Assembly: GCA_017520635.1 (NCBI GenBank)
Contig: JAFXFI010000004.1
Location: 14,857-78,856, forward strand
Origin: Clostridia bacterium
GTDB lineage: Bacteria; Bacillota; Clostridia; Oscillospirales; Acutalibacteraceae
Reading direction: 5' to 3'
DNA length: 64,000 nucleotides
Notes under the pieces: model-generated
Databases searched by the model: none
Seen by the model: only the letters and a program-made list of their open reading frames with translations
What the model was told of the DNA's origin: nothing
Shown: piece by piece, positions 4,325 through 38,555 of the stretch
How the letters are laid out: each line of letters starts with the position of its first letter
Position numbering within the stretch: the first letter of the stretch is position 1
Translations under genes and position numbers: made by a program

Positions 4325-5638
4325 TTACATTCTTTGCTTTTTGCGGTAGCAAAGAATGTATCCCATACCTATTGTTAATGATGAGATAATAACAGCAACT
4401 AAAATTGTTGCGGGGAGAATGTCTTCTGCAAGATACCATTTTACCTGTGTGGGGTGGAATCTGATTGACAATTCTTCATCCTCAAAAGAAATTTTCGGTT
4501 TATCACCAACTTCATTTGAAAGGTATTCGTAAATATTTTCAGTTGTTATTACACTGTTTTCAATAAATGTTTGCATTTCTTCTTCTGTGTCAAATTCTTT
4601 GTATTCCCAGTCAATTTCATAAAAATCCTCCATAAGCAATTCGCCGTTCTTTTCGAATGTAATTATTTCAAAGCTTTGAATATCAACAGTTGTTCCTTCG
4701 ATATGATTCAGGCAGTAAATTTCAGTTTTGTTCAATATATGATTTTTTAACTTGTTATAATTGGATTCAGCATTGTCTGCTGTGTAATAATTATAGCTTG
4801 CAAGCTTGAAATCAAAGGCAGAAGAGGATGTAAAGGTTTCAACGCATAGAGAGAAAAAAGGAAAAATAAAGCAACATATGAAAACGATTACTGAAATTAT
4901 TGAAACGGTTTTGATAACCTTTTTCCGATAAGAGATATATTCTTCTTTAAGGTCAGCATCAAAAGAAAACTTTTTTGCGGCTGCTTTGTATATAAACAAA
5001 GACAGAATAAATATTACAAAAGCAACGGATAAAATCCATGGTATAAATAATCCGCAAATCAGATTAACTATAATTGTAAGCAGAGAAAAAATATCAAAAG
5101 CAAACACGGAAATTAAAAATAGTGCAGTTTTCTTTATGTGCTTTTGCTTTACATCTTCTGTAACAGGAGTCTCGGTGTCTGACAGTATATTTTTATAGTT
5201 CATAAACGCGACAAATTCCAATATAGCCGAAGCACCGATTAACAGTAAAGAAAAAATAATTCCTATCGCCATGTGTGAGAGAAAAAGGGCAATAAGCAAC
5301 CCGAAGGTACAGAGAATCAAAGAAACCGAAGACAATGTATAGTATTTATCAGATGAAGTCTTAAAAAGATATAACGCCTGTTTTTCTGATTTTTTGTTAT
5401 TATTTGAGCTATCCTCTTTTTCCGCATTGAGTTTTTCACCTCGTAACAGTTCATCAACTGTGACAGAATAAATTTCTGCAATAACAGGGAGCATTGTAAT
5501 TTCAGGGTATCCTTCGTCACATTCCCATTTGCTGACCGTTTTATTGGAAACATTCAGTTTATCTGCCACTTGTTGTTGGGTAAGACCGTTTGCTTTTCGT
5601 AAAGCTGCCATAAAAGAACCAATAGTTTTCTTTTCCAT
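4325..5638 (-). CDS. XRE-family helix-turn-helix regulator fused to a multi-pass membrane domain and a C-terminal extracytoplasmic domain
   Basis: 437 aa. The N-terminus LRKANGLTQQQVADKLNVSNKTVSKWECDEGYPEITMLPVIAEIYSVTVDELL is a classic HTH_3 domain. Several hydrophobic segments follow. Confidence 0.75.
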   Translation of the reverse strand: MEKKTIGSFMAALRKANGLTQQQVADKLNVSNKTVSKWECDEGYPEITMLPVIAEIYSVTVDELLRGEKLNAEKEDSSNNNKKSEKQALYLFKTSSDKYYTLSSVSLILCTFGLLIALFLSHMAIGIIFSLLLIGASAILEFVAFMNYKNILSDTETPVTEDVKQKHIKKTALFLISVFAFDIFSLLTIIVNLICGLFIPWILSVAFVIFILSLFIYKAAAKKFSFDADLKEEYISYRKKVIKTVSIISVIVFICCFIFPFFSLCVETFTSSSAFDFKLASYNYYTADNAESNYNKLKNHILNKTEIYCLNHIEGTTVDIQSFEIITFEKNGELLMEDFYEIDWEYKEFDTEEEMQTFIENSVITTENIYEYLSNEVGDKPKISFEDEELSIRFHPTQVKWYLAEDILPATILVAVIISSLTIGMGYILCYRKKQRM

Positions 5639-5913: not shown

Positions 5914-8900
5914 TTATTCAGCGTCGGGAGCATAGAGAGCCTGAAGACGAACGAGGTGATCGTATCTCTTCATTGCTGTTTCTTCAGCAAGTGAGAAGAG
6001 TTTAGCTGCTCTTTCCGGGAATGCATTAAGAAGAGAAGCATAACGGCTTTCACTCTTAATGAAGTCCTGATAACCTGCTGCGGGAGCTTTGCTGTCAAGG
6101 ATGAAGGGATTCTTGCCTTCTTCTTTGAGTGCGGGGTTGTATCTGAAGAGGTTCCAGTAACCGCAGTCAACAGCCTTCTTCATTTCTGACTGGCAGTTAG
6201 CCATGCCGCCGCCTTTGATACCGTGCATTTCGCATGGTGCGTAGCAGATGATGATTGAAGGTCCGTTGTAAGCTTCAGCTTCTTTGATTGCTTTGAGTGT
6301 CTGGTTGTTGTCAGCACCCATAGCGATCTGTGCAACGTAAACATAACCATAGCTCATAGCGATTTCTGAAAGGCTCTTCTTAGCAACTGCTTTACCGGAA
6401 GCTGCGAACTGTGCAACCTGACCGATGTTAGAAGCCTTAGAAGCCTGACCGCCTGTATTTGAGTAAACTTCTGTATCGAATACCATGATGTTTACATCTT
6501 CGTGAGCAGCAAGAACGTGGTCAACACCGCCGAAGCCGATGTCATAAGCCCAACCGTCGCCACCGAAGATCCAAACTGATTTCTTAGAAAGGAAGTCTTT
6601 GTTTGCAAGGATTGATGAGCAGAGTTCGCAGCCTTCAACTTTTTCAAGTTCTGCTACAAGAGCATCTGTTGCTGCACCGTTCTTTTCACCGTCTGTAACT
6701 GTTGCAAGGTAAGCTTCTGCTGCTGCTTTGAGTTCTGCTGATGCTTTGTCAGAAGCTGCAACTTCTTCAACCTTAGCAATGAGGCTGTCACGGATAGCTT
6801 TCTGTCCGAGGAACATACCGTAACCATGTTCTGCGTTATCTTCAAAGAGTGAGTTTGCCCATGCAGGACCCTGACCCTTAGCATTTGTTGTGTAGGGAGA
6901 TGTTGCTGCAGGACCGCCCCAGATTGATGAACAACCTGTTGCATTTGAGATATACATTCTGTCACCGAAGAGCTGAGTTACAAGGCGAGCATAAGCTGTT
7001 TCTGCACAACCTGCGCATGAGCCTGAGAACTCGAGGAGAGGTTTCTTGTACTGGCTTGCTACAACGTTCATGTTAGCAACTGTTTCTGCTTTTTCTGTAA
7101 CGTTAGCTACACAGTAATCGAATACTTTCTGTTCTGCTTCCTGTGATTCACGAGAAACCATCTTAAGAGAAGCTGTGGGACATACGCCTACGCAAACGCC
7201 GCAACCCATACAATCCATGGGAGAAACTGCAAGTGTGTATGTGTAGTTTGTCTTAACAACGGGCTTGGGAGCTTTCTTCATGTTTGCGGGAGCTGCTGCT
7301 ACTTCTTCTTCACTGAGAGCGAAGGGACGGATTGTAGCGTGAGGACAAACATAAGAACATTTATTACATTTTGCACATTTTGCGGGATCCCATTCAGGAA
7401 CGAGAACTGCAACGCCACGTTTTTCGTAAGCAGCTGCGCCATGTTCAAATGTACCGTCAGCGTGATCCATGAATGCTGAAACGGGAAGTGAATCACCGTC
7501 CATGAGGGCTACGGGTTTCATGATGCCGTCAACCATCTTAACGAGTTTTGCTTCGCCTTCTGATGCTGCAACAGCTGCGTCATCTGTAGCATCTGCCCAA
7601 GCAGCGGGAACATCGATTTTAGCGAATGCTGAAACACCTGCGTCGATAGCGTTGTGGTTCATGTCAACAACATCCTGACCTTTTTTGAGGTAAGATCTTG
7701 TTGCAGCGTCTTTCATATACTGAACAGCTTCTTCGATGGGCATAACCTTTGCAAGAGCAAAGAATGCAGCCTGAAGAATTGTGTTTGTACGTTTGCCCAT
7801 ACCGATTTTTGCAGCAAGGTCAATAGCATTAACAGTGTAAAGCTGAATGTTGTTCTTTGCAATGTAACGTTTGGCTTCTGCAGGCATGTGAGCGTCAAGT
7901 TCTTCTGCTGACCACTGGCAGTTGATAAGGAATACACCGCCGGGTTTAACGTCGTTAACCATCTTGTAACCCTTGATTACATAAGAGGGGTTGTGACAAG
8001 CAACGAAGTCTGCTTTGTTGATATAGTAGGGGCTCTTGATGGGTTTGTCACCGAAACGAAGGTGAGAAACTGTGATACCGCCTGTTTTCTTTGAGTCATA
8101 CTGGAAGTAAGCCTGAACATACTTGTCTGTATGGTCACCGATGATTTTGATTGAGTTCTTGTTGGCACCAACAGTACCGTCACCGCCGAGACCCCAGAAC
8201 TTGCATTCGATTGTACCTTCAGCAGCTGTGTTGGGAGCTTCTTTTTCTTCAAGAGAAAGGTGTGTAACGTCGTCGTTGATACCGATTGTGAACTGTTTCT
8301 TTGAATCTGCTTTTGCAAGTTCATCGTAAACAGCGAAGATGCTTGAGGGAGGTGTGTCTTTTGAACCGAGACCGTAACGGCCGCCGATTACCTGAGCCTG
8401 ACGACCCTGTGCAGCGAGAGCAGCAACAACATCAAGGAAGAGAGGTTCACCGAGTGAGCCGGGTTCTTTAGTTCTGTCAAGAACTGCAATCTTCTTAACT
8501 GTTGAGGGAATAGCTTCAACAAGTTTTTCTGCTGAGAAGGGTCTGTAAAGACGAACCTTAACAAGACCGACTTTTTCACCCTTAGCTGTAAGGTAGTCAA
8601 TAACTTCTTCTGCTACGTCACAGATTGAACCCATAGCAACGATGATATTTTCAGCGTCGGGAGCACCGTAGTAGTTGAAGAGTTTATAGTCTGTACCGAG
8701 TTTTGCGTTAACCTTGTTCATGTATTCTTCTACGATGCCGGGAACAGCTTCATAGTATTCGTTACATGCTTCACGGTGCTGGAAGAAGATGTCACCGTTT
8801 TCATGAGAACCACGCATTACGGGATGTTCGGGGTTGAGAGCACGTTTACGGAATGCGTTAACAGCATCCATATCGCACATTTCTTTAAGGTCTTCGTAAT

Positions 8901-9459
8901 CCCATATAGAAATCTTCTGAAGCTCGTGAGATGTACGGAAACCGTCGAAGAAGTTGATAAAGGGCACACGGCTCTTGATTGTTGCAAGGTGAGCAACAGC
9001 ACCGAGGTCCATAACTTCCTGAGTGTTTGTTTCAGCAAGCATAGCGAAACCTGTCTGACGGCAAGCATATACGTCTGAATGGTCGCCGAAGATGTTGAGA
9101 GCATGTGATGCTACGCAACGAGCTGATACGTGGAAAACTGAGGGAAGAAGTTCACCTGCGATCTTATACATGTTGGGGATCATGAGAAGAAGACCCTGAG
9201 AAGCAGTATAAGTTGTTGTGAGAGCACCTGCATTAAGTGAACCGTGAACTGTACCTGCAGCACCTGCTTCAGACTGCATTTCTGCAACTTTAACTGTTGT
9301 GCCGAAGATGTTTTTCACGCCCTGTGCAGACCACTGGTCAACATAGTCAGCCATGGGGCTTGAGGGAGTGATGGGATAAATACCTGCAACTTCTGTGAAA
9401 GCGTATGACACATAAGCAGCGGCATTGTTACCATCCATTGTCTTGGTTTTTCTTGCCAT
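5914..9459 (-). CDS. nifJ: Pyruvate:ferredoxin (flavodoxin) oxidoreductase, single-polypeptide PFOR
   Basis: 1181 aa. It has the N-terminal MDGNNAAAYVSYAFTEVAGIYPITPSSPMA, two ferredoxin-type CxxCxxCxxxCP motifs (CAKCNKCSYVCP, CMGCGVCVGVCP) and a TPP-binding GGDGWAYDIG motif. Confidence 0.95.
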   Translation of the reverse strand: MARKTKTMDGNNAAAYVSYAFTEVAGIYPITPSSPMADYVDQWSAQGVKNIFGTTVKVAEMQSEAGAAGTVHGSLNAGALTTTYTASQGLLLMIPNMYKIAGELLPSVFHVSARCVASHALNIFGDHSDVYACRQTGFAMLAETNTQEVMDLGAVAHLATIKSRVPFINFFDGFRTSHELQKISIWDYEDLKEMCDMDAVNAFRKRALNPEHPVMRGSHENGDIFFQHREACNEYYEAVPGIVEEYMNKVNAKLGTDYKLFNYYGAPDAENIIVAMGSICDVAEEVIDYLTAKGEKVGLVKVRLYRPFSAEKLVEAIPSTVKKIAVLDRTKEPGSLGEPLFLDVVAALAAQGRQAQVIGGRYGLGSKDTPPSSIFAVYDELAKADSKKQFTIGINDDVTHLSLEEKEAPNTAAEGTIECKFWGLGGDGTVGANKNSIKIIGDHTDKYVQAYFQYDSKKTGGITVSHLRFGDKPIKSPYYINKADFVACHNPSYVIKGYKMVNDVKPGGVFLINCQWSAEELDAHMPAEAKRYIAKNNIQLYTVNAIDLAAKIGMGKRTNTILQAAFFALAKVMPIEEAVQYMKDAATRSYLKKGQDVVDMNHNAIDAGVSAFAKIDVPAAWADATDDAAVAASEGEAKLVKMVDGIMKPVALMDGDSLPVSAFMDHADGTFEHGAAAYEKRGVAVLVPEWDPAKCAKCNKCSYVCPHATIRPFALSEEEVAAAPANMKKAPKPVVKTNYTYTLAVSPMDCMGCGVCVGVCPTASLKMVSRESQEAEQKVFDYCVANVTEKAETVANMNVVASQYKKPLLEFSGSCAGCAETAYARLVTQLFGDRMYISNATGCSSIWGGPAATSPYTTNAKGQGPAWANSLFEDNAEHGYGMFLGQKAIRDSLIAKVEEVAASDKASAELKAAAEAYLATVTDGEKNGAATDALVAELEKVEGCELCSSILANKDFLSKKSVWIFGGDGWAYDIGFGGVDHVLAAHEDVNIMVFDTEVYSNTGGQASKASNIGQVAQFAASGKAVAKKSLSEIAMSYGYVYVAQIAMGADNNQTLKAIKEAEAYNGPSIIICYAPCEMHGIKGGGMANCQSEMKKAVDCGYWNLFRYNPALKEEGKNPFILDSKAPAAGYQDFIKSESRYASLLNAFPERAAKLFSLAEETAMKRYDHLVRLQALYAPDAE

Positions 9460-9531
9460 TATGAATTTCCTCCTTAAATAAAATGGAAAATTGATAACTA
9501 TAAGATATACATATATAATATACCACTCGCA

Positions 9532-9560: not shown

Positions 9561-9601
9561 TAAGAAATTAGAGCATAATTCGTCACTTTTTTTGGATATA
9601 T

Positions 9602-9617
9602 TGACAAATTTTTGTCA
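9602..9617. promoter_or_regulatory. Perfect 7-2-7 palindrome TGACAAA-TT-TTTGTCA in a divergent intergenic region (candidate operator)
   Basis: Read directly from the sequence. It sits between the divergent nifJ and pyruvyl-transferase-operon promoter candidates. Confidence 0.3.
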
Positions 9618-9662
9618 TTGATTATTCTGAAAAGGAAAATAAAACCTTTTCGGAAAGTCTTG

Positions 9663-9691
9663 TTGACTATTTCGTGATAAAATTGTATTAT
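9663..9691 (+). promoter_or_regulatory. Candidate sigma-A promoter of the 9710-14166 operon
   Basis: TTGACT, a 17 nt spacer, then TATTAT with a TG immediately upstream. Confidence 0.5.
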
Positions 9692-9709: not shown

Positions 9710-12049
9710 GTGGGCATTTTGAAAAAAAGAGTAGGAATTGCAACATTGCACAGCGCCATAAATTACGGTGTTTATCTGCAGGCGTATGCTATGCAGAAAA
9801 AGATTGAAGATTTCGGATATGATGCGGAAATAATTCACTATGTCAAAAGAACGGAAAGTGTACTTGCTTCGGATAAAAAGTCAAAAATCAGAAGACTTCT
9901 CATGCATCCGGTTCAGACAAAGAAAATTATTGACAACAAGATTATGAAATCAGGTAGCAATTTTGCAGGAAGAAGTTTTTCTTTTTCAAAATTTGCTTCA
10001 AAGAATTTTAATCTTACACGACTTTGCAATGATATGGCAGATGCCGAAGAAATCGGCAGAAAATATGATGCAGTTGTCTGCGGAAGTGACCAGATCTGGA
10101 ACCCCGTTCATACTGACTGTAACCCCTACTATTTTCTTCAGTTTGTTCCCCAAGAAAAAAGAATTGCCTATGCTCCCAGTGTTGCCTGTGAAGAAATTCC
10201 TGAAAAATATCTTGAGACTTTCAAGAACTATATTTCCTCTTTCTCCTCAATTTCCGTCAGAGAATCTTCAGGCGCAGAGCTTGTTGAAAAAATTACGGGA
10301 AGAAAATGTGAAAATACAGTTGACCCCACACTTCTCTATGATAAAAATTTCTGGAATGAATTTGCTTTGCCTGAAAGAATTGTGAAAGAACCCTACATTT
10401 TTTGCTATTTCCTCGGTGGTACTGAAATACACAAAGAAGCAATTGACAGAATTGAAAAAGAAACGGGAAAAAAAGTAGTTCTTTCTCCTTTTGATTCTGA
10501 AATAAACAACCTAAAAAAAGGTGAAAAAATTTACGCTGACATTGAGCAATTTTTAACTCTCATAAGAGATGCAGATTTTGTTCTTACAGACTCATTCCAT
10601 GGTGTTGCTTTTTCTGTAAATTTCAGAAAAAGCTTTGCTGCAGTAAAACGTCATGATATTGATGCGGGTAAACATACAAGAGTAAATGATTTTCTCTCGA
10701 AGATTTGCCTTGCAGACAGAATTGTAACAGACGAAAATATAGATGATTTTAATTTTTCTGAAATAAATTATGAAAAGAGCGAAAATATTTTACAGAACTG
10801 GATAAAATCGTCTGAAGATTATTTCAGAAATTCCCTTGAAAAAGTATTGGAAAAAACCGAAAAAGCCGAAAAGAAAAATATTTCTCTTCTGCCTGAAAAC
10901 AGTTGTTATGGTTGCTCTGCCTGTGCGAATGCTTGTCCGAAAAATGCAATAAAAATGAATAAAGATGAGCTTGGATATCTGTATGCAGAAGTTGATGAAG
11001 ATAAGTGTATAAATTGCGGACTTTGCCTTAAAAAATGTGAAGTTTTAAAAGAAAATACTTCACGTAAAAATGATTTTGAAACAGAGTGTTTTGTTGCATG
11101 GATGCGTGATGAAGAAAAAATAAAAATGAGTTCATCGGGCGGTATGTTCTTCGCTCTTGCAGAAAAATTCATTGAAGACGGAGGATATGTTGCAGGTGCA
11201 GTTTACACAGATGATTTCAGAGGTGTAAAAACAATTGTCACCAATGATATTGAAGAAGTAAAAAAAATGAGAGGCTCAAAATATTTCCAGAGTGATAAAG
11301 GAAATGTTTTCTCTGAAACGAAAAATCTTCTGGAAAAAGGTGAAAAAGTTTTCTTCAGTGCCTCTCCCTGTGAGTGCGGAGCTTTGAGCGCTTTTCTCGG
11401 AAAAGATTATGAAAATCTTGTAACAATGAGTTACATCTGTCACGGTCCGTCAGCGCCTGCAGTTCTCAGTAAATACATTGATGAAATTGAAAAAGAATAC
11501 GGAAGTTCAGTTATATCTTTCACAACAAGATACAAAAAAGACGGAAAGCATCTTCCCCTTTATCTCAGGGCAACATTTGAAAACGGAAATGAAAAGCTTG
11601 AAGAATATGCACCGTCAGAACTCGCCAGAATTTTCATGAGTGGCTGTGCTATGAGAAACTCTTGTCTCAATTGCAAATTCAAGAGTCTGCCACCTTTCTC
11701 AGATATCTACGTAGGTGATGCAGGAGGAAAATATTATCCCGTTGATAAGTTCAATGTGTCAGGTACATCATGCGTTTTTGTTTCAAGTGAAAAAGGAAAA
11801 ACTTTACTTGAAAGTATTAAGGATAGAATTTATGTAAACGATGCAGACGTTGACAAAATGATTCAGAGCAGAAACAATATTCTCTTTGCATCAAAAGCGC
11901 CCACATTTAAAAAATCAGAAGAATTCAGAACAAATTTCAAAGAGTTTGGTGTGAGTCAGACTGCAAATAAAATGTTTCCGAGACCTTCAAAGAAAAAACT
12001 TATGATAGGTAAGGTAAAAGCAATTATCAAAAAGATAATTATGAGGTGA
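9710..12049 (+). CDS. Fusion protein: polysaccharide pyruvyl-transferase-family domain (N-terminal) plus 2x[4Fe-4S] ferredoxin and coenzyme F420 hydrogenase/dehydrogenase beta-subunit-like (FrhB/FdhB-like) domain (C-terminal)
   Basis: The N-terminus GIATLHSAINYGVYLQAYAMQ...CGSDQIWNP...LTDSFHGVAFS is pyruvyl-transferase-like. The middle has CYGCSACANACP and CINCGLCLKKCE. The C-terminus SSSGGMFFALAEKFIEDGGYVAGAVY...GSKYFQS is FrhB-like. The track start is GTG at 9710, but TTG at 9719 has better spacing from AGGAGA (9704-9709). Confidence 0.7.
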   Translation: MGILKKRVGIATLHSAINYGVYLQAYAMQKKIEDFGYDAEIIHYVKRTESVLASDKKSKIRRLLMHPVQTKKIIDNKIMKSGSNFAGRSFSFSKFASKNFNLTRLCNDMADAEEIGRKYDAVVCGSDQIWNPVHTDCNPYYFLQFVPQEKRIAYAPSVACEEIPEKYLETFKNYISSFSSISVRESSGAELVEKITGRKCENTVDPTLLYDKNFWNEFALPERIVKEPYIFCYFLGGTEIHKEAIDRIEKETGKKVVLSPFDSEINNLKKGEKIYADIEQFLTLIRDADFVLTDSFHGVAFSVNFRKSFAAVKRHDIDAGKHTRVNDFLSKICLADRIVTDENIDDFNFSEINYEKSENILQNWIKSSEDYFRNSLEKVLEKTEKAEKKNISLLPENSCYGCSACANACPKNAIKMNKDELGYLYAEVDEDKCINCGLCLKKCEVLKENTSRKNDFETECFVAWMRDEEKIKMSSSGGMFFALAEKFIEDGGYVAGAVYTDDFRGVKTIVTNDIEEVKKMRGSKYFQSDKGNVFSETKNLLEKGEKVFFSASPCECGALSAFLGKDYENLVTMSYICHGPSAPAVLSKYIDEIEKEYGSSVISFTTRYKKDGKHLPLYLRATFENGNEKLEEYAPSELARIFMSGCAMRNSCLNCKFKSLPPFSDIYVGDAGGKYYPVDKFNVSGTSCVFVSSEKGKTLLESIKDRIYVNDADVDKMIQSRNNILFASKAPTFKKSEEFRTNFKEFGVSQTANKMFPRPSKKKLMIGKVKAIIKKIIMR

Positions 12050-12053
12050 GAAA

Positions 12054-13700
12054 ATGGGTGAAAAAATAAAAAAGCTCATAGGTGTTGAAGGTGATTTCAA
12101 AACTACAATTCTGCCTATGATAAATTACAGCTATGCCAACATGTACATGGGCGGTGCAGGATATATTATCGGAATGTATTTCACCGTTTTCCTGACTGAC
12201 GTTGTAAACCTTTCTCTCAATCAGGCAGGTATTGTTGTCATGATTGCAACAATCTGGGATGCAATAACTGACCCTATAATGGGAATTATTACTGACCGTA
12301 CACGTTCAAAGACGGGAAAACACAGACGATATCTCTTGTGGGGTATTCCCGTTATGGCTGTGTCATACATACTTCTGTGGAATTCATTCGGACTTAACGG
12401 AATTGAAAATCCCACCAAGACAATGATTTATTTTGTACTTGTCTATATGCTTTACAAAACGGCATATACAATAATCGGCGTTCCTCATACAGCAATGTTA
12501 CCGGAACTTGCTCCTGAATACAATCTGAGAACACAGTATAATTCAGTAGGATATCTTTTCAATTCAGCCGGTATGGTTCCTGCATTCGGAATTGTTGTTG
12601 TTATACTTTCACTTTTCGGTTCAAATGACAACATAACTTCTGAGTCTAAAAAGCCTTTCCTTGTAATAGGTATTGTACTTGCAATTTTCTTTTCAATTGC
12701 AGTTTTTCTTACCTATTCAAAAACAAGAGAAAAAAGTTCTCTTGATATCAAAAACGAAAAACTTGATATTCCTTACATCATAAGAGAATATGTACTTGTT
12801 TTTAAAAACAAATCTTTCAGACAGTATTTCTTTATGAGTCTTGCTTATCAGTTCTCAACAGGATTTTATGCAAACTCAAAGGTTTACTACATAAAATATC
12901 TTGCAAATCAATACAGCAAGTATGCTCTTTTCAATGCAGTCGCAGGTGTTGCGGAAGCGGGTGCATTCCCCCTTAACTATGCACTTACAATGAAACACGG
13001 CAAGAAAAAATGCGGAAATATTGTAACTCCTCTTATGGTTGCAGGTCTTGCAATCGGACTTATTATGCAACCGGGCGGTTCTTTCCTCTGGGTAGCGCTT
13101 ATGATGGTGAGTATGCTCCTTTATCCTTTCGGAATGTCAGGACTTGGCTTTGTTTCGACAAATATTTTTCCGGACCTGACTGACGTTGATGAGCTTATCA
13201 CAGGCAGAAGACGTGAGGGTGTTATTTCTACTTTCAGCACACTTATCAAGAAAAGCATCAGTGGTGTTATGGCTGCACTTGTTGGTTTTACACTTCAGGG
13301 CTTTGGTCTTGTGACAGGAGATACTGTTTCAAAATATGAAGAAGCAACAGGAAATCTTTTCGCACAGACTGACAGTGCTGTATGGGGTGTAAGAATCTGT
13401 GTTGCAGTAATCCCCATTGTGGCAGCAATAATTGCTCTCATACTTCTTAAAAATTTCAAAATGACAAAAGATGACCATACAATGATTCGCGCTGCAGTTG
13501 CAACGAAGAAAAAATACGGTAGTGTAACTCTGACAGAAGATGAGAAAAAACGTATTGAGCTTATTTCAGGACAGAAGCTTGAAAACACATGGCTCGGTCA
13601 GAATAATACGGAAGAACATTTCCTTGAAACAAACGAAAAAGGTGAATATATAATTCTTATTGAAATGAAGAAAGAGAAGGAGGTACTTGAGAATGGTTGA
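12054..13700 (+). CDS. GPH-family (glycoside-pentoside-hexuronide) cation symporter of the MFS superfamily, with a long hydrophilic C-terminal tail
   Basis: 548 aa. The signature DAITDPIMGIITDRTRSKTGKHRRYLLWG is present. I read about 12 hydrophobic segments, followed by a charged tail of about 80 aa. Confidence 0.75.
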   Translation: MGEKIKKLIGVEGDFKTTILPMINYSYANMYMGGAGYIIGMYFTVFLTDVVNLSLNQAGIVVMIATIWDAITDPIMGIITDRTRSKTGKHRRYLLWGIPVMAVSYILLWNSFGLNGIENPTKTMIYFVLVYMLYKTAYTIIGVPHTAMLPELAPEYNLRTQYNSVGYLFNSAGMVPAFGIVVVILSLFGSNDNITSESKKPFLVIGIVLAIFFSIAVFLTYSKTREKSSLDIKNEKLDIPYIIREYVLVFKNKSFRQYFFMSLAYQFSTGFYANSKVYYIKYLANQYSKYALFNAVAGVAEAGAFPLNYALTMKHGKKKCGNIVTPLMVAGLAIGLIMQPGGSFLWVALMMVSMLLYPFGMSGLGFVSTNIFPDLTDVDELITGRRREGVISTFSTLIKKSISGVMAALVGFTLQGFGLVTGDTVSKYEEATGNLFAQTDSAVWGVRICVAVIPIVAAIIALILLKNFKMTKDDHTMIRAAVATKKKYGSVTLTEDEKKRIELISGQKLENTWLGQNNTEEHFLETNEKGEYIILIEMKKEKEVLENG

Positions 13701-14166
13701 TATAAAAAAAGATAAACCTGAGCTTAAAACAAATAAGTTTTTTGATTTTCTTTTTTATCTTATTCAATGGACATGGGGACTTCCCGTGAATATTGTGGGC
13801 GGTATTGCCTTTTTAATCTGTACAAAAATAAAGAAACGCTGTTTCCAGCGTTTCGGTTATTCTTATATAGTTTATCTTCCGTGGAAATCAGGCGGACTCT
13901 CATTGGGACTTTTCATATTCATGAAAGATGTTCCCGAAAATAAAAAGTGGACTTATAACACACGTATTCACGAATACGGTCACACATGGCAATGTCTTCT
14001 TCTGGGACCTCTTTATTATATTGTAATTGCAATTCCTTCAATGATATGGTGTAACTTGTTTGCAAACTACAGAAAGAAAAATAACATTTCTTATTATAAG
14101 GTTTACTGCGAAAGCTGGGCAAATGCCTGGGGACAAAAAGGCAGTAAATTGAAAATGGATATTTAA
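13693..14166 (+). CDS. Small membrane protein with an HExxH (HEYGH) motif; putative zincin-like protein of unknown function
   Basis: ATG at 13693 lies 8 nt after GAAGGAGGT and overlaps the transporter stop by 8 nt. Hydrophobic segments flank RIHEYGHTWQ. Confidence 0.4.
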   Translation: MVDIKKDKPELKTNKFFDFLFYLIQWTWGLPVNIVGGIAFLICTKIKKRCFQRFGYSYIVYLPWKSGGLSLGLFIFMKDVPENKKWTYNTRIHEYGHTWQCLLLGPLYYIVIAIPSMIWCNLFANYRKKNNISYYKVYCESWANAWGQKGSKLKMDI

Positions 14167-14171
14167 ATGTA

Positions 14172-14205
14172 AAAAGAGCACGGTCAGATGACTGTGCTCT
14201 TTTGA
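14172..14205 (+). terminator. Intrinsic terminator ending the 9710-14166 operon
   Basis: The stem agagcacggtc/gactgtgctct (one G-T pair) is followed by tttt. Confidence 0.6.
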
Positions 14206-14237
14206 TGAATTAATTCAAAAAACAGAAACAGAGCATT

Positions 14238-14397
14238 CAGGGAACCCCTGGCGAGGGTTCCCTACGAAAAACAGTCACACCGGACTGTTTTTCTACCCTC
14301 CTGCGCTTTTGTACGCATTAAGAGTTTCGCATTCTGCGGAATGCGACAAGGGCTTTGCCCCTTGACCCCACAAACTTTTGAAAAAGTTTGACCAAAA
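14238..14397 (-). repeat. Five-hairpin structured repeat element, copy 2 (inverted relative to copy 1)
   Basis: Its reverse complement aligns with 3560-3717. By my count the 45 nt block from gtggggtcaagg to gcga has 2 mismatches and the 69 nt block from gcgcaggagg to ggttccctg has 2 mismatches. Differences within stems are compensatory. Confidence 0.8.
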
Positions 14398-14440
14398 CTT
14401 TCAAAGTTAAATATAAAACAGAACAAGTAGAAAAAGTCAT

Positions 14441-14473
14441 ACAAAACGGGAGTCGCTCCGACTCCCGTTTTGT
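14441..14473 (-). terminator. Intrinsic terminator downstream of glyQS
   Basis: The stem acaaaacgggagtc/gactcccgttttgt is followed on the minus strand by a T-run. Confidence 0.75.
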
Positions 14474-14485
14474 ATCATTTAAAAA

Positions 14486-15865
14486 TTAAAACTTAATTTT
14501 ATCTTCAATGTATGCTGCAACTTCGTCAATGGGAAGTCTTACCTGTTCCATTGAATCTCTTTCTCTGACTGTTACACAATTGTCTTCGAGAGAATCGAAG
14601 TCAAATGTTACACAGTAGGGAGTACCGATTTCATCTTCACGGCGGTATCTCTTACCGATTGAACCTGTTTCGTCAAAGTCTGTCATAAAGTGCTTGTTGA
14701 GTTTTTCATAAACCTTGAGAGCATCTTCTGAAAGCTTCTTTGAAAGAGGAAGAACTGCTGCCTTGTAAGGAGCAACTGCAGGACTGAGGTGAAGAACAAC
14801 ACGTGTGTCGTTCTTTTCTGCATCAATAACTTCTTCGTCATAAGCTTCGCAGAGAAGTGCAAGAACAGTTCTGTCAAGACCGTATGTAGATTCAATAATA
14901 TAGGGAATATATCTTTCGTTTGTTTCGGGATCAAGGTAGTCAATTCTCTGACCGCTGTATTCCTGATGTCTTGTAAGGTCGAAGTCTGTTCTGTTGTGAG
15001 TACCATTGATTTCGCCCCAACCAAAAGGGAAAAGGAATTCGATGTCACATGCAGCCTTTGCATAGTGAGCAAGCTTTTCGTGATCGTGGTAACGGAGATT
15101 TTCTTCCTTGATACCAAGGTCTTTGTAGTACTGCATGCCGTATTCCTTGAAGTAATCATAAAGGTCGTTGTCAGTTCCTTCTTTACAGAATGTCTGGAAT
15201 TCCATCTGTTCAAATTCAATTGTTCTGAAAGTGAAGTTACCGGGAGTGATTTCGTTACGGAAAGCTTTACCGATCTGACCGATGCTGAAGGGAAGCTTTG
15301 CTCTCATTGTACGCTGTACGTTGAGGAAGTTTACATATTCACCCTGAGCGTTTTCGGGACGAAGGTAGATAACGCTCTTTGAATCGTTTGTAACACCGCG
15401 GAAAGTCTGGAACATAAGGTTGAATTCACGGATGTCTGTGAAATTGTGCTTACCGCAGTTGGGACAGGGGATTGAGTGAGCCTTGATGTACTCAAACATT
15501 TCTTCTTTTGTCATGCCGTCTGCATGAGCGTTTTCATCAAAGTCGTCAATAAGGTTATCTGCTCTGTGACGCATTTTACATTCTTTACAGTCAAGAAGAG
15601 GGTCCGAGAAGCTTGCAACGTGACCGCTTGCTTCCCATACTCTGGGATGCATGAGGATGTCAGCGTCAACTTCGTAGCTGTTCTTTCTTTCCTGAATAAA
15701 TCTTTTTCTCCATGTGTCCTTTACGTTGTTCTTGAGTCTTGCACCGAGAGGACCGTAGTCCCATGTGTTTGCAAGACCACCGTAGATTTCACTGCCGGGG
15801 AAGATGAAGCCTCTGCCTTTGCAGAGAGCAACTACTTTTTCCATAGTTTTTTCTGTGTTCTTCAT
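14486..15865 (-). CDS. glyQS: Glycine--tRNA ligase, homodimeric class II type
   Basis: [34 protein letters not shown] is the typical GlyRS N-terminus. I placed the start at the ATG at 15865 (AAGGAG 10 nt upstream) rather than the track start at 15904. Confidence 0.92.
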
Positions 15866-15887
15866 AATCTGTATACTCCTTAAAATA

Positions 15888-16601
15888 TTAAACAGTTTTA
15901 ACAATATCGCCTGTTATTGAGTTTTCGGTCAGCATGTTGATAACTTTCTGATAAACGGCAATATGTGTGGAAGAAATATATTTGTCAATGTGCATGCTTC
16001 CGAAAAACCAGCAACGGAATTCGCATGACTGACTCAGCTCTTCAAGATAGGTGTTAAGACCTGTGATACGTGCAGATTCTGTATCCTGCAGAAGAAGAAG
16101 TCCCTTGATTTTTGCGGGAGGTTCATGGGAAAGAATGAAGTCAACGCTGAAATCTCTTTCCTGAAGTCTCTTTGCGCCGTCAATAAGCTCCTGCCTTATA
16201 GGGGTTTCGTCGCTTGACCATGTGTCTTTTTCGTATCTTAAATCAATATCGGGGCTTTCACCGCCACCCATTACGAAAATGCTTTTTCCTTCAAAATCGT
16301 AAATCTGCCCTCGCTGAAGATAATAGATGTTGTTGCTTATTTTTCTTGCGAGACCGCCTTTGTATGTGCCTAATTTATATTCTTTGAGAAGGTCAAAGTT
16401 TTCGTGCGTTCCGTCAATGAAACAGATGGTATATTTTTTTGAAGACAACTTTTTCAGATTTCTTTTTTCCTTCAGACTGTTATCCCAGATAAATCCGAAG
16501 TCTCCGCATACAAAAAGAGTGTCGCCCTTTTTCAGCTTTTTCAACTCTTTTGCGGAAAATCTGTTTATGTTGCCGTGGGTATCTCCCGTTACATACAGCA
16601 A
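15888..16601 (-). CDS. Calcineurin-like metallophosphoesterase
   Basis: Motifs present are [17 protein letters not shown] and DGTHENF. The probable start is TTG at 16601, 7 nt after AGGAGG; the track start is GTG at 16619. Confidence 0.75.
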
Positions 16602-18123: not shown

Positions 18124-20193
18124 ATGAGCAAGAAATTACTTAAAGTTATTTCTGTTATTCTTGCAATTGTTATGGTTACTTCAACCTTCACAGTTGTAAT
18201 GGCAGCAGAAGACACAACAGTGAACGCACCCGTAGCAGAAGATACAACTGTTACTGATGCAAAAGAAACAGTATCAGGTGCAATTGATGTAATTCAGAGT
18301 GTTGTTAACCTTGACACAGAAACCTTTGCATCAATCAAGACACTTCTTCTTGATTACCTCAACGGTTTCAGCAACCGTCATGCACAGCCTGAAAACCAGT
18401 GGATAGTCACTCTCAACGGCAAAGAAATGGATGTTCTTTCTTTCAGTGGCTTCACAGAGGCAATTCTCAACATCAGCACAACTCAGGAACTTAAATATGT
18501 TGCACTTTCAGTTGTTGAAAGCCTTGCACATAAAATCCTCGGTGCACTTGCAGATACTCTTTCTGATCCTTCTTATTTCCAGGATGAAAAGAACTATAAG
18601 AGTGAAAATTTCTACGCAGGTACAGAAAAGTTCCTTGACAAGCCTGCTGAAAATGCAAAATGGCAGCTCGGTTATGCAAACGCAAGCCTTGTTCCTTCAG
18701 ACTGGCAGACAAAGGATTACTATCTCGGCGGTTACATTGACATCAATAACGGTTTCTCAAATAAAGTTGAATCAATCGTTGATGATATGAAGATCAGAAT
18801 TGTTGCTATGGATGACTCTTCAGACAGAGGCGTTTCAATTTTTGCAACAATTGACTCAATCGGTGTTTCAAACCTTTATATCAGACAGATCCGTGCAGAA
18901 GTTGCAAAAATCGCTGCGGAAAAGAAAATCAAGCTGGCAAGCGTTAACGTTGCTGCAACACACACACACAGCGGTATTGATACACAGGGTCTCTGGACTA
19001 ATCTTTTCCCCAAACTTCTCGGAAACCTTGCAAAGGGCTGGACAGGTCTCGGCTCACTTGAAAAGGGCGTTGACGAAGATTATATGAAGTTTGTTGTTAA
19101 AGTATCAGCAGAGGCAATGGGTAAAGCACTTGACGACATGAAACCCGGCTCACTTACATACTCAAAGAAAGATATCGGTGACGGTTATTTCAACAATAAG
19201 AACCGTGATTCAGCAACATCAAAGGACAACACAGTAACACGTCTTATCTTTACTCCCGATGATGCCCAGGCAACACCTACAATCATTGCAAACATGGCAG
19301 GTCATCCTGACGTTGCAGGTCTTCCTACAGATGACGGTAAGGGTACAGGCCGTGAGCTTTGCGGTGAATATGTTTATTACATTGAAAAATTCCTCAACGG
19401 ATACAGAAATGAAAATGTAGCAGTAAATGAAGGTGCAAACGGCTATAACTTCTATTTCATTAACGGTGCTATTGCAGGTATCTACATGGGAAGAGGTCTT
19501 TCAGGTGACAGCGTTCCCACAGTACACCGTTACGAAGAGTCAATCCGTTATGGTACAGAAATCGGCAGAATTCTTCTTGCTCTCAACATGACAGAAGAGG
19601 AAATTCTTGCAAACGATAACATTTCAGGTAAGTCAATTATTGATGCTGAAATCGAAAAATACGGTCTTCAGAACAGCTATACAATCTGGTATGAAGGTTG
19701 GACACCTGTTGAAGAAATTGAACTTGATCCCATTCTCAACGTAAGAGTCAAGGAAATCAGAATCCCCGTAACAAATAACTTTATCAAGCTTGCAGGCCGT
19801 GCAAACCTTGTTTCATACAACATTCTCAGGACAGAAAAAGGCACATATGAGGTTGTTTCAGAAACAGGTTATGTTGAAATCGGTCAGATGATGAAGTCTG
19901 TTATGGCTCCCGGCGAAATCGTAACAGATATTATCTACGGCGGAGGCTCAATTACAGCAGAAGGCTCATTCTCATGTCAGGACTATCAGTACAAATCAGC
20001 ATGTGAAATCTTTGGAGATAAAGAGCTTACAGCGTTCGGTCTTTGTAACGATGCTCTCGGTTACATTGTTCCCGACAACGACTATTGTCTTATCAGCTAC
20101 CATGAGCTTATTTCTCTCGGCAAATATGCAGCTTCTTCAATCTCAGCTGCTTACGTTGAAATTGCAAAGGAAGTCAATGCTCCGGCAGCATAA
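18124..20193 (+). CDS. Secreted protein resembling the neutral/alkaline (non-lysosomal) ceramidase N-terminal domain
   Basis: 689 aa with a signal peptide. The segment VNVAATHTHSGIDTQG, preceded by IRIVAMDD...VSIFATIDSIG, matches my recollection of the ceramidase_alk pattern. Confidence 0.4.
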   Translation: MSKKLLKVISVILAIVMVTSTFTVVMAAEDTTVNAPVAEDTTVTDAKETVSGAIDVIQSVVNLDTETFASIKTLLLDYLNGFSNRHAQPENQWIVTLNGKEMDVLSFSGFTEAILNISTTQELKYVALSVVESLAHKILGALADTLSDPSYFQDEKNYKSENFYAGTEKFLDKPAENAKWQLGYANASLVPSDWQTKDYYLGGYIDINNGFSNKVESIVDDMKIRIVAMDDSSDRGVSIFATIDSIGVSNLYIRQIRAEVAKIAAEKKIKLASVNVAATHTHSGIDTQGLWTNLFPKLLGNLAKGWTGLGSLEKGVDEDYMKFVVKVSAEAMGKALDDMKPGSLTYSKKDIGDGYFNNKNRDSATSKDNTVTRLIFTPDDAQATPTIIANMAGHPDVAGLPTDDGKGTGRELCGEYVYYIEKFLNGYRNENVAVNEGANGYNFYFINGAIAGIYMGRGLSGDSVPTVHRYEESIRYGTEIGRILLALNMTEEEILANDNISGKSIIDAEIEKYGLQNSYTIWYEGWTPVEEIELDPILNVRVKEIRIPVTNNFIKLAGRANLVSYNILRTEKGTYEVVSETGYVEIGQMMKSVMAPGEIVTDIIYGGGSITAEGSFSCQDYQYKSACEIFGDKELTAFGLCNDALGYIVPDNDYCLISYHELISLGKYAASSISAAYVEIAKEVNAPAA

Positions 20194-20220
20194 AATAAAT
20201 TTATTTAAAACGTGGTTATT

Positions 20221-21354
20221 ATGAAAATAAGCAAAACTGCTTTCAGACTTCTCAGTCTGTTGATGACTTTCGTTCTGATAATCAGCATATCCGGTTTGTC
20301 TGCCTTCGCGGCAGATGAATCGGATTATGTTGCCGAATTCAGAATTGAAACGGACAAGTCATCGCCTCGGAAGGATGAGGATATAGAAGTAAGTGTTTTT
20401 CTGAAAACTAACTACTATATCTGTACAATGTCACTTGCCATACTCTATGACAGTGAAATGCTGTCTTTACAGAACACAAGTTCCAGTCTTTCATCATTCC
20501 TTACCTTTGAAGGTTCAATGGCGGATACTTATATAACTAACGGCAATTGGAAAAGTCCGTCAAACTTTTATTTAAAAAGAAATTCAAATCCCTCATTCTG
20601 GTCACGGGATGATATTATGAATAAGTATAAGATTGTTTATGCTACATGGTCAGCAGACACGTCTATTTCTTCCGAGCTTGTTTTAATGAGTGAAGAAGAA
20701 AAGGTTCTTTCTTTTACCGTAAAAGCAAACGAAGATATTGAAGATTTATCCGAACTCATTTTTATGAGCAATGATTTTCAAAAGACTCAGACAGCACCTC
20801 AGGGTATTTTCTTTGTAGGAAGATCAACCACAGAAGAATATTCAATAAGCTCCATGGTAACATCAGGACAGACACTTATTTACCACGGTGTTGATCCTAC
20901 GAAAAAAGAACCGGAAGCCAAGGTCAGCTTTTCTGCAAAAGAAAGTACTGCTACAATTATTGATAAAGAACTTGGTCTTATCTACGGTCTTGAAGAAGGT
21001 ATTTACGACCTTGAGGACTTTGTCGAATATGAGGGCGGCACACTTGAATACATTGAATCTGAAAACGGATTCGGTACAGGTTCGGTTGTTAATTTTATTG
21101 TTGACGGTGAAATTTACGAATCATATACAATAATAATTTTCGGAGACCTTACAGGTGACGGAGTTATTGACACTTACGATACGGTGATGATGGCATCAAT
21201 TGTCAATTACGATATAGAATTTGAAGAAAAATCACCTGTTTCAATTGCAGGAGATATTTCCAACAATGATGATATTACCGATACCTATGACCTGGTTTAC
21301 CTTTACCGTGTCGTAAACGGTGACAGCGAACTTCCTCAGACGATGGAAATTTAA
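20221..21354 (+). CDS. Secreted cohesin-like domain, X module and C-terminal dockerin (adaptor-scaffoldin-like)
   Basis: It has a signal peptide. The cohesin-like segment is DIEVSVFLKTNYYICTMSLAILYDSEML. The two dockerin Ca-binding repeats are GDLTGDGVIDTYD and GDISNNDDITDTYD. The track ORF starts at GTG 20212. Confidence 0.65.
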   Translation: MKISKTAFRLLSLLMTFVLIISISGLSAFAADESDYVAEFRIETDKSSPRKDEDIEVSVFLKTNYYICTMSLAILYDSEMLSLQNTSSSLSSFLTFEGSMADTYITNGNWKSPSNFYLKRNSNPSFWSRDDIMNKYKIVYATWSADTSISSELVLMSEEEKVLSFTVKANEDIEDLSELIFMSNDFQKTQTAPQGIFFVGRSTTEEYSISSMVTSGQTLIYHGVDPTKKEPEAKVSFSAKESTATIIDKELGLIYGLEEGIYDLEDFVEYEGGTLEYIESENGFGTGSVVNFIVDGEIYESYTIIIFGDLTGDGVIDTYDTVMMASIVNYDIEFEEKSPVSIAGDISNNDDITDTYDLVYLYRVVNGDSELPQTMEI

Positions 21355-21382: not shown

Positions 21383-22378
21383 GTGAAGAAAACTTTTTGT
21401 AAAGTAATTTCAGTTCTTATGCTGATTACAATGCTTTTTGCAACAGGCATTGCAGGAATAACTTCATTTGCAGCTTCTGAAGCAGATTACGTTGCAACTT
21501 TCAGCATCAAAACAGATAAAACTTCTCTTGCAAAGGGAGAAGATGTGGTTGTAAGCGTAAATCTTAAAACAAATTATTATATCTACTCAATGGAACTTCC
21601 CGTAATTTATGACGGTGATGCTTTCGAAGTACAGAATACAAGTCCCACAAGTCTCAAGTCTTTCCTTACCTTCAAAGGCAAGCTTGCTTCTGCTTATGTG
21701 ACTAACGGTAACTGGAAAAGCCCTGCTAATTTCTATACAAACCGTAATTCAAACACAGAATACTGGTCACAGAAAAAGGTTATGGACAGATATAAAATTG
21801 CCTTTGCTTCATGGTCAGCAAATACTCAGCTTAATGACGGTAAAGCTGTAAAACTGTCAAGTGAAGAAACAATTGTTTCTTTTGTTCTTAAAGCAAAAAA
21901 AGATATCAAGGATATTTCAGGTCTTATTTTCCTCAGTAATGATTTCAAGAAAACACCTGATTTTTCCGGTGGCAGATGGTTCTGCGGAAGAAGTACGAAA
22001 GAAAAGATTGATGTTAACAATTATGTCGCAGTCGGTCAGACTCTGAAATATACAGGTTCTGTTCCTGAAAAAGAAGAAATTAAGGAAGAAGAGAACGACA
22101 GCATTGTTGCAATCAATTATAAAGGCACAGCAAGTCTTAAAGACAACCTTAATTCAACAATCCTCAAGGACTACAAGCTTACATGGTCTTCGGCAGACTC
22201 TTCAATTGTAACTGTTGATGAGGACGGTAACATTTATGGTGCAAAAGCCGGTACAACTACAGTTACTGCTGCATCAAAAGACGGTAAGTTTGAAAAGGAT
22301 TTTGAAGTAACAGTTAACTATTCATTCTTCCAGTGGATTATAATTATTGTTCTTTTTGGTTGGATTTGGTACATTTAA
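21383..22378 (+). CDS. Cohesin-like domain, Big_2 (bacterial Ig-like) domain and C-terminal transmembrane anchor
   Basis: The N-terminal roughly 180 aa is clearly paralogous to the preceding gene (shared NGNWKSP.NFY, RNSN and YKI..A.WSA motifs). LTWSSADSSIVTVDEDGNIYGAKAGTTTVTA is Big_2-like. The C-terminus FFQWIIIIVLFGWIWYI is hydrophobic. The start is GTG, 9 nt after AGGAG. Confidence 0.6.
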   Translation: MKKTFCKVISVLMLITMLFATGIAGITSFAASEADYVATFSIKTDKTSLAKGEDVVVSVNLKTNYYIYSMELPVIYDGDAFEVQNTSPTSLKSFLTFKGKLASAYVTNGNWKSPANFYTNRNSNTEYWSQKKVMDRYKIAFASWSANTQLNDGKAVKLSSEETIVSFVLKAKKDIKDISGLIFLSNDFKKTPDFSGGRWFCGRSTKEKIDVNNYVAVGQTLKYTGSVPEKEEIKEEENDSIVAINYKGTASLKDNLNSTILKDYKLTWSSADSSIVTVDEDGNIYGAKAGTTTVTAASKDGKFEKDFEVTVNYSFFQWIIIIVLFGWIWYI

Positions 22379-23916: not shown

Positions 23917-23923
23917 GTGATAT

Positions 23924-24442: not shown

Positions 24443-24478
24443 TTATATATTGTATTTTTATAGAAAGGATGAGGTCTA

Positions 24479-28695: not shown

Positions 28696-28708
28696 AGGAG
28701 GTAGCAGA

Positions 28709-32498: not shown

Positions 32499-32612
32499 AA
32501 ACACTTGATTTTTTGTAATTTTTTTGTTACTATTATAGGGCATGGAATATGACTAAAAACTATGGAAGTATTATAAGCGTGGAGGGAAACGAAACGTGAG
32601 TAAAACAAAAAG
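32499..32612 (+). promoter_or_regulatory. Duplicated promoter/leader module, copy B (TTGATT-17-TACTAT plus leader, running into the first codons of the SpoIID-like gene)
   Basis: It aligns with 31296-31415. In this copy the module includes a GGAGG RBS and the GTG start at 32596. Confidence 0.55.
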
Positions 32613-35896: not shown

Positions 35897-35910
35897 CAGG
35901 AGGATAGCAC

Positions 35911-38550: not shown

Positions 38551-38555
38551 TTACA

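Follow-up and report, generated by a model that had tools for sequence, protein, structure and literature searches.

We analysed a 64,000-nucleotide stretch of contig JAFXFI010000004.1 (hereafter the window; G+C content ~38%) from a Clostridia bacterium of the Acutalibacteraceae, focusing on three plus-strand genes at 9710-14166 that encode a fusion of a polysaccharide pyruvyl transferase with an FrhB-like Fe-S reductase, a GPH-type sugar symporter and a small membrane protein with an HExxH motif (Table 1). A first-pass annotation, made from the DNA letters without database searches, had placed three open reading frames (ORFs) here, and all three were found as it described. Judged from the DNA sequence, a single compact operon closed by a terminator was confirmed, co-transcription being predicted from the gene spacing together with the terminator; a search of RNA runs found the locus in none of them. 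The likely ATG of the small-protein gene (13693) has a GGAGG ribosome-binding site and overlaps the end of the symporter gene by 8 nt, which agrees with the earlier description of a translationally coupled HExxH membrane protein, the motif here being HEYGH. The operon terminator was overlooked by a simple scan because its loop is short, and was recovered as an inverted repeat.

The arrangement is not an assembly artefact, since 91% or more of the words sampled from this stretch were recovered in each of at least seven independent runs of gut metagenomes; close relatives of the locus come from Acutalibacteraceae and other Clostridia whose genomes were assembled from gut metagenomes of human, deer and other origin. 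Pfam scans detected no glycosyltransferase, Wzx, Wzy or priming transferase in the operon, as the first-pass annotation had stated, and no polysaccharide-assembly genes among the 39 larger ORFs scanned in the window, which cover most of the 64 kb. An Rfam scan of the whole window was empty, so that the operon is preceded by no known riboswitch or leader.

Table 1. Features of the three-gene operon and its immediate neighbours, in window coordinates.
Feature	Position	Strand	Details
Fusion gene, ORF	9710-12049	+	GTG 9710 start gives 779 aa
PS_pyruv_trans domain of fusion	9761..10651	+	aa 18-314; Pfam E 5e-31
Ferredoxin-like 2x[4Fe-4S] insert of fusion (Fer4 dicluster)	10895..11044	+	aa 396-445; CxxCxxCxxxC twice
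FrhB_FdhB_N + FrhB_FdhB_C reductase module of fusion	11087..11848	+	aa 460-713; Pfam
Junction ATTATGA|GGTGAGAAAATG, fusion stop / symporter ATG	12040..12056	+	4 nt apart
Symporter gene, ORF	12054-13700	+	548 aa
GPH/MFS_2-type sugar:cation symporter	12054..13700	+	core aa 25-471; Pfam MFS_2 E 6e-66
Symporter C-terminal cytoplasmic tail	13464..13697	+	aa 471-548 (~78 aa); no Pfam match
Small-protein gene, ORF	13687-14166	+	likely start ATG 13693 (157 aa)
157-aa membrane protein, gluzincin-like	13693..14166	+	HEYGH at nt 13969-13983; invariant E140 at nt 14110-14112
Best-placed sigma-70-like promoter candidate	9663..9691	+	TTGACT-17-TATTAT; consensus scan, pattern match
Further promoter candidates	9491-9519 and 9601-9628		consensus scan of the 250-bp PFOR-fusion gap
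Intrinsic terminator ending the operon	14172..14203	+	14-bp stem then TTTT; RNAfold -21.6 kcal/mol
Pyruvate:ferredoxin oxidoreductase (PFOR) gene, divergent upstream neighbour	5914-9459	minus	Pfam and NCBIfam
Glycyl-tRNA ligase gene (glyS), convergent downstream neighbour	14486-15904	minus	

Analysis of the fusion confirmed both halves of the enzyme, the transferase being N-terminal to the FrhB-like Fe-S part within one polypeptide as first described. The ORF does extend to the 779 aa given earlier, but the likely true start is the TTG at 9719, behind a GGAGAG ribosome-binding site; the resulting length of 776 aa matches that of many homologs. The transferase domain aligned with profile positions 1-278 of the 280 in PF04230 (109 bits against a cutoff of 25.3), and the reductase half matched FrhB_FdhB_N (PF04422) at aa 460-528 (E 3e-9; 37.5 bits, cutoff 22) and FrhB_FdhB_C (PF04432) at aa 545-713 (E 5e-15; 56 bits, cutoff 23.3). 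Alignments of 22 and 92 fused proteins defined invariant positions in the transferase (GSDQxW 125-130, SxRE 182-185, DPT 205-207, SFH 295-297 and R324), eight Cys in the ferredoxin-like insert that are invariant in 92 homologs, and conserved positions in the FrhB half (SSSGG 474-478, SKY 523-525 and Cys 554, 577, 652 and 655, these four Cys being invariant in 92 sequences). All of these residues, and with them every catalytic-looking invariant of the fused family, are retained in the window protein.

An AlphaFold2 model of the fusion (pLDDT 92.4, pTM 0.89) gave Foldseek matches of the N-terminal half to GT-B enzymes, including the yeast pyruvyltransferase Pvg1p (5ax7, E 4e-6), and of the C-terminal half to F420-reducing subunits, the sulfite reductase Fsr, HCAR and FrhB (E 1e-14 to 1e-10). 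The fusion scored 26.7 bits against the CsaB equivalog TIGR03609, whose cutoff is 213. Neither MurA nor MurB was among the matches listed for the fusion (16 from Pfam and the best 25 of 60 from NCBIfam), no direct comparison with either having been made.

The first-pass annotation considered the fused polypeptide unusual, the two proteins being expected as separate neighbouring genes. A search of 5.8 billion proteins instead returned 745 matches to the fusion at E < 1e-5, the best 120 of which are essentially all 740-810 aa long with both Pfam domains, and contigs matching it exactly were all shorter than 4 kb. The fused architecture is thus common rather than unusual, and belongs to a large family that is functionally uncharacterised. 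Fused homologs at 36% and 31% identity, one of them from Faecalicatena contorta, lie inside textbook polysaccharide loci that hold a priming transferase, glycosyltransferases, Wzy and Wzx along with separate transferase and FrhB-like genes, and their position between glycosyltransferase, Wzy and Wzx genes supports the membership of this family in glycan assembly.

Metagenome contigs were scanned with the fusion alignment and 80 loci were kept, whose ORFs were labelled with local hidden Markov models (HMMs) built iteratively from seeds in two annotated loci only; with these labels, 67 of the 80 loci contained at least one Wzx, Wzy, glycosyltransferase, priming-transferase or LytR marker, and the 13 marker-free loci were mostly short contigs or cases of missed families rather than true exceptions. 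Split pairs were found in the orders Pyr>Frh (30 loci), Frh>Pyr (16) and Pyr-Wzx-Frh (nine). The fused form occurred in 14 loci, 12 of which carried polysaccharide markers and a thirteenth nucleotide-sugar genes, whereas the GPH transporter, GH43 (glycoside hydrolase family 43, considered below) and the small protein were found in none of the 80. The first-pass annotation had suggested that the enzyme pair acts on an imported glycoside rather than in surface polymer synthesis, a view that it held open to refutation if fused homologs uniformly occupied standard polysaccharide loci. The survey comes close to that situation but corresponds to it only in part, because the clade nearest to the window protein lies outside such loci.

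We propose that the fusion decorates an envelope glycan with a lactyl ether or a related group, with no necessary tie to the transporter, and we give this proposal about an even chance of being correct. The fusion would be a cytoplasmic bifunctional enzyme in which the GT-B-fold N-terminal half transfers enolpyruvyl from phosphoenolpyruvate (PEP) onto a sugar hydroxyl. Instead of a second hydroxyl closing a pyruvate ketal, the Fe-S/FrhB flavin half would then reduce the C=C bond of the enol ether, and the predicted product would be a 1-carboxyethyl (lactyl) ether, following the logic of MurA and then MurB. The most likely substrate would be an envelope glycan, or a nucleotide- or lipid-linked precursor of one, made elsewhere in the genome. 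Reduced ferredoxin is the most likely candidate electron donor, given the divergent PFOR gene and a complete Rnf operon in the window and the use of ferredoxin by relatives of the HCAR type.

Members of PF04230 (CsaB, WcaK and Pvg1p) resemble the N-terminal half in the end-to-end HMM match, the invariant motifs and the GT-B fold of Pvg1p, and the gene for CsaB likewise lies apart from glycan-assembly genes; the fusion differs from them in being joined to a three-cluster Fe-S/flavin reductase and in its predicted product, a lactyl ether rather than a ketal. The C-terminal half has the same N and C Pfam domains, fold and four [4Fe-4S] Cys as the FrhB/FdhB reductases (FrhB, FpoF, Fsr and plant HCAR), but lacks a hydrogenase or dehydrogenase partner and is joined instead to a sugar-modifying transferase. 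Members of the HCAR type use ferredoxin rather than F420 and reduce carbon substituents, and BciB is a ferredoxin-dependent divinyl reductase of the same family; to our knowledge, coenzyme F420 is not expected in Clostridia. The parallel with MurA and MurB, which convert UDP-GlcNAc to the lactyl ether of muramic acid, lies only in the proposed reaction logic and product type; MurB is an NADPH/FAD enzyme, and the reductase of the fusion is of the Fe-S/FrhB type.

Correlative support for the proposed product comes from surface glycans of other bacteria. Pyruvyltransferase genes have been reported in four Klebsiella K types with non-pyruvylated capsules, K8, K22, K37 and K66 (Pan 2015), and the supplement of that study annotates the neighbour of the transferase gene as a "nitroreductase" in K22 and K37 and as a "coenzyme F420 hydrogenase" in K66. 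In the K-antigen table of another review, O-lactyl sugars appear only in K66 (beta-Glc-O-lac) and in K22 and K37 (beta-GlcA-O-lac), the title of the K22 structure paper naming 4-O-[(S)-1-carboxyethyl]-GlcA. The pairing of a transferase with a reductase therefore coincides with all three O-lactyl Klebsiella types, a correlative observation. Related reports are that a frameshift in one gene deprived E. coli O164 of the glucolactilic acid that distinguishes O124 from it, that "two new genes" for making glucolactilic acid in S. boydii 17 are announced in the title of a 2006 paper, and that Campylobacter with a pyruvyl transferase gene in pgl operons carries a 234-Da sugar (162 + 72) proposed to be glucolactilic acid. 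We group the glucolactilic acid genes of S. boydii 17 and E. coli O124 with the Klebsiella lactyl loci, namely wcqF with the "F420 hydrogenase" HG203 in K66 and wclZ with the "nitroreductase" in K22 and K37, as systems in which a transferase and a reductase accompany an O-lactyl glycan, a likeness drawn from annotations and glycan structures. These pairs are separate genes within Proteobacterial Wzx/Wzy loci, whereas the fusion is Clostridial and lies outside a glycan locus.

Alternatively, the fusion could be an ordinary ketal-forming pyruvyltransferase whose Fe-S/FrhB half senses redox state, regulates the enzyme or reduces another position of the sugar. This agrees with the strong PS_pyruv_trans match, in which all family motifs are present, with ketal formation by the majority of its characterised relatives in the family (review PMC6801904), and with our literature search, which found no paper biochemically linking FrhB-like proteins to pyruvyl transferases. 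We nevertheless consider it distinctly unlikely, because the 30 Pyr>Frh pairs, 16 Frh>Pyr pairs and 14 fusions argue for consecutive steps on one substrate, because the Klebsiella types with a transferase and a reductase carry lactyl groups and not pyruvate, and because relatives within the FrhB family are catalytic reductases.

If formation of a lactyl ether is correct, the common pairing of a transferase with an "F420 hydrogenase beta-like" protein, which occurs in capsule loci of gut Firmicutes, in Bacteroidetes-type loci and in some Enterobacteria, would gain a concrete and testable function, and lactyl-ether synthesis by this pair would be a second route to muramic-acid-like chemistry. 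Prediction of surface glycans would also improve, in that lactyl rather than pyruvate would be annotated where the reductase is present.

Orthologs of the window fusion form a separate clade (P0001-P0032), whose members share 40% identity or more among themselves and no more than 34% with all others. In eight genomes with 80-94% identity (L003-L010), the fusion gene occupies the same site beside the PFOR gene, and a 67% ortholog stands alone beside PFOR. Among the 54% orthologs, one is monocistronic and another is the last gene of an operon (299-6038 in L018) together with genes for a 340-aa protein with a weak GDSL match, an MBOAT O-acyltransferase and an aldose-1-epimerase-like protein. The MBOAT partner suggests modification of an envelope glycan, and the operon is a hint that the target of the clade is an envelope glycan carrying O-acyl groups as well. 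The 43-45% orthologs lie between a Big_2 protein and a YukD/zinc-ribbon protein. None of the clade members examined, at 43-100% identity, was in a polysaccharide-assembly locus, and the orthologs at 43-67% identity lacked a transporter or glycosidase, the transporter being confined to the genus-level group. We considered the adjacency to PFOR as strong functional evidence and rejected it, as it holds at 67-100% identity and not at 54% or 45%.

The genomes closest to the window showed that the contact between the fusion and symporter genes, which the first-pass annotation took as meaningful, is secondary. In seven of the eight relatives (L003-L009), a Glyco_hydro_43 gene of 324-326 aa (E 2e-45) directly follows the fusion gene, its ATG overlapping the fusion stop codon, and in six it lies between fusion and symporter. 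Among solved structures, this GH43 protein, which lacks a signal peptide, is closest to exo-1,5-alpha-L-arabinofuranosidases and to a clostridial "beta-xylosidase". In four relatives, a gene for a 160-aa Pyridox_ox_2 (PNPOx-like) flavoprotein also lies ahead of the transporter, and in L005 the fusion and GH43 genes are followed by a terminator, with neither symporter nor small protein.

In the closest relative (L003, 94% identity), the fusion/GH43 boundary reads ...ATTATGAAATGAGT... and the GH43/transporter boundary ...GGATGAGGTGAAGAAATGGGC. The window junction, ...ATTATGAGGTGAGAAAATGGGT, is exactly the remnant expected of a deletion between two ATGA repeats, as judged by comparing window positions 12040-12056 with positions 2900-2915 and 3885-3905 of L003 and also with L009 and L006. 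Such a deletion would remove the 981-bp GH43 gene and alter only the last residue of the fusion. Direct contact of fusion and symporter in the window therefore looks like the product of a recent and precise GH43 deletion between ATGA microhomologies. GH43 is also absent from L010, where the junction is different, indicating that it was lost at least twice or by another route.

The other end of the operon is variable as well. Inserts of 3-5 kb with unrelated genes separate the small-protein and glycyl-tRNA ligase genes in L007 (16114-21106), L008 (10442-13543) and L009 (15617-18932), encoding GH3-type acyl-acid amido synthetase, MATE-like (as judged by eye), GH28-like and lipase-like proteins, whereas only ~320 bp separate these genes in the window. 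The differing inserts indicate that the site is a hotspot of variable gene content. In L007 and L008, the local HMMs labelled a 465-aa gene downstream of the small-protein gene as "Wzx"; this weak MOP-superfamily label, on the protein judged MATE-like by eye, was rejected as a sign of a polysaccharide locus. We conclude that the apparently special setting of the operon arose largely because genes were lost locally where gene content varies. Apart from one more member for the fusion family, the window contributes little, but it does illustrate that a minor deletion can give an operon misleading neighbours.

Several observations weigh against formation of a lactyl ether on an envelope glycan. 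The link to lactyl groups is a correlation drawn from annotations and structures in other phyla; an FrhB-type partner is present only in K66, the reductase of K22 and K37 being of a different type; and K8, which has a pyruvyltransferase gene and no pyruvate, is left unexplained. No envelope-glycan locus was identified as the target of the fusion, and because its clade has never been seen in a polysaccharide locus, the substrate of this clade could differ from that of the surveyed homologs. In addition, the genes for fusion, GH43, PNPOx-like protein, symporter and small protein are tightly packed in the genus-level group with overlapping stop and start codons, and such packing usually reflects related function.

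The same packing speaks for a single pathway for an imported glycoside, in which the symporter would take up an oligosaccharide that may be pyruvylated or carboxyethylated, GH43, in genomes that have it, would trim it, and the fusion would modify it or, working in reverse, remove the acidic group to yield pyruvate or PEP. The tight operon in eight related genomes, with stop-start overlaps at both the fusion/GH43 and the GH43/PNPOx-like boundaries, fits such a pathway, as do the lack of a signal peptide on GH43 and its proximity to exo-1,5-alpha-L-arabinofuranosidases, the retention of fusion and GH43 in L005 despite the missing transporter, and the absence of the fusion clade from polysaccharide loci. 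We regard this pathway as unlikely, since the linkage is limited to one genus-level group (80-100% identity) and is not seen in the 43-67% orthologs, the symporter pair is independent and is found with unrelated genes elsewhere, and the pathway is incomplete in the window and in L010, which lack GH43. None of the 80 surveyed loci held a GPH or GH43 gene, as noted above. The reverse reaction would also be energetically unfavourable, because a high-potential acceptor is required to oxidise a lactyl ether to an enol ether, and a ferredoxin-based fermenter is unlikely to offer one. We know of no reverse pyruvyl transferase and of no pyruvylated or lactylated arabinan. The link to sugar uptake proposed in the first-pass annotation holds within the genus, where seven of eight sisters carry GH43, and is not seen in the orthologs beyond it.

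A related possibility, which we consider quite improbable, is that, in this Acutalibacteraceae lineage, the fusion clade was recruited from glycan biosynthesis to a cytoplasmic route for acidic glycosides. The symporter and its zincin-like partner would bring these in, GH43 would trim them, and the fusion, together with the PNPOx-like flavoprotein, would add or remove a three-carbon acid. If so, the transferase/FrhB pair would have its first role in catabolism or salvage.

In the favoured reading, decoration of an envelope glycan, the transcription unit joins two independent modules, whose contact need not mean a shared pathway; the symporter pair would import a glycoside, in the sister genomes probably an arabino-oligosaccharide cut by the adjacent GH43.

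Analysis of the second module showed that the symporter matches Pfam MFS_2 (PF13347) with 223 bits against a cutoff of 27, and the NCBIfam models for GPH (TIGR00792; 202 bits, cutoff 231) and MelB (173 bits, cutoff 456) below their cutoffs. Its charged C-terminal tail of about 80 aa is present as first described, but is not the unusual feature it was taken for, as it shares 61-63% identity with the tails of transporters that have only 58% identity in the core. By this alignment the tail is a conserved domain and not an oddity of one lineage. Loci of other Clostridia that lack the fusion (6349-8504 in L020; 6350-8498 in L023) pair an MFS_2 gene of 549-550 aa with a translationally coupled downstream gene for a 165-167-aa homolog of the small protein. 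The neighbours there are genes for M29 peptidase, Metallophos, mannitol-dehydrogenase-family (UxuB-like) and altronate-dehydratase-family (UxaA-like) proteins, or for an M20 peptidase. Symporter and small protein are thus, on gene context, an autonomous conserved two-gene module, because they occur elsewhere with peptidase and hexuronate genes and without the fusion.

Cassettes that pair a MelB/GPH transporter with a glycosidase, such as the xyloside transporter and GH43 pair of Bacillus, are comparable in the MFS_2/GPH core and, in the sister genomes, in the cytoplasmic GH43 directly upstream. The window symporter differs from them in its conserved 78-aa tail, a domain of no known family, in always being followed by the coupled HExxH protein and in scoring below the GPH cutoff.

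It is also conceivable that the symporter-like protein works outward, exporting or flipping a glycolipid or lipid-linked sugar that the fusion has modified. A flippase and a pyruvyltransferase are paired as csaA-csaB in Bacillus, and eukaryotic MFS_2 relatives move lipids; at the locus itself, the points in favour are adjacency and co-transcription only. Such a role is very improbable, because the families that it matches best are those of MelB and other GPH sugar symporters, the fusion orthologs outside the genus lack the symporter, and the occurrence of the module beside hexuronate-catabolic or peptidase genes elsewhere and beside a cytoplasmic glycosidase in the sister genomes both fit import.

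The small protein belongs to a family of its own. A search at E <= 1e-3 gave 442 homolog clusters, the best 120 at 67-88% identity and far more numerous in that range than those of the fusion, and at the same threshold a library clustered at 50% identity yielded at least 1,614 relatives. No Pfam family was matched by the small protein at E up to 10 or by 60 of its homologs, and no NCBIfam model by the small protein at E up to 0.01. Across 60 diverse relatives, H93, E94, G96, H97, Q100, E140 and a few other residues are invariant, and hydrophobic segments lie at about aa 26-46 and 99-125. The predicted structure (pLDDT 93.5) has two helices at the N-terminus, then a sheet of four strands and two further helices, a long one carrying HEYGH and another carrying E140, an order of elements that in this model is zincin-like. 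Foldseek found nothing significant for it in the PDB (best E 0.5), the weak top matches being zinc peptidases. One distant homolog (P0281) lies on a 1.6-kb contig with uninformative context.

Gluzincins of the M48/M56-like type, for which the soluble "minigluzincins" provide the minimal comparison, share with the small protein the HExxH motif, the invariant downstream Glu and the order of sheet, active helix and Glu helix; the small protein differs in having no significant HMM or structure match, two hydrophobic segments and a tie to a transporter. More likely to hold than recruitment of the fusion clade to imported glycosides is the proposal that the tail-bearing symporter and this mini-gluzincin of the membrane work as an obligate transport unit of two proteins, a kind not described before. 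The family, which numbers at least 1,614 cluster representatives and is covered by neither Pfam nor NCBIfam, merits a name and experiment.

The convergent gap between the operon and glyS (14167-14485) contains several strong hairpins with no Rfam family, two of which are back-to-back terminators. The glyS terminator lies on the opposite strand at 14434-14480, and additional palindromes, for example at 14266-14293, are found between the two terminators. On the other side of the operon, a minus-strand gene upstream of PFOR (4325-5638) encodes a 437-aa protein with an N-terminal HTH_3 domain (RstR/DicA-like) and a long uncharacterised C-terminal part; the protein is conserved in L007 at 80% identity.

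Elsewhere in the window, an ApbE flavin transferase gene precedes the complete RnfCDGEAB operon (22535-29512), which together with PFOR points to a ferredoxin-centred energy metabolism. A Big_2 protein is encoded at 21383-22378, and Big_2 proteins also flank the 43-45% fusion orthologs (L014, L104). Three large ORFs of 689, 380 and 849 aa, at 18124-20193, 20212-21354 and 40473-43022 (minus strand), have no Pfam match; the 689-aa ORF also has no NCBIfam match, and in relatives (75-79% identity) it lies beside a DacA-like gene. A same-strand run at 34647-39734 encodes a GFO_IDH_MocA/GH109_C-like oxidoreductase, an FGGY sugar kinase, an Ldh_2-family dehydrogenase and a malic enzyme, and may be a cluster for utilisation of a sugar or sugar acid; an alpha-galactosidase (Melibiase_2) gene lies at 44149-45456. 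Finally, the protein encoded at 32596-33681 combines a type I dockerin with a SpoIID domain, an unusual pairing that suggests cellulosome-style anchoring of a cell-wall-remodelling protein.

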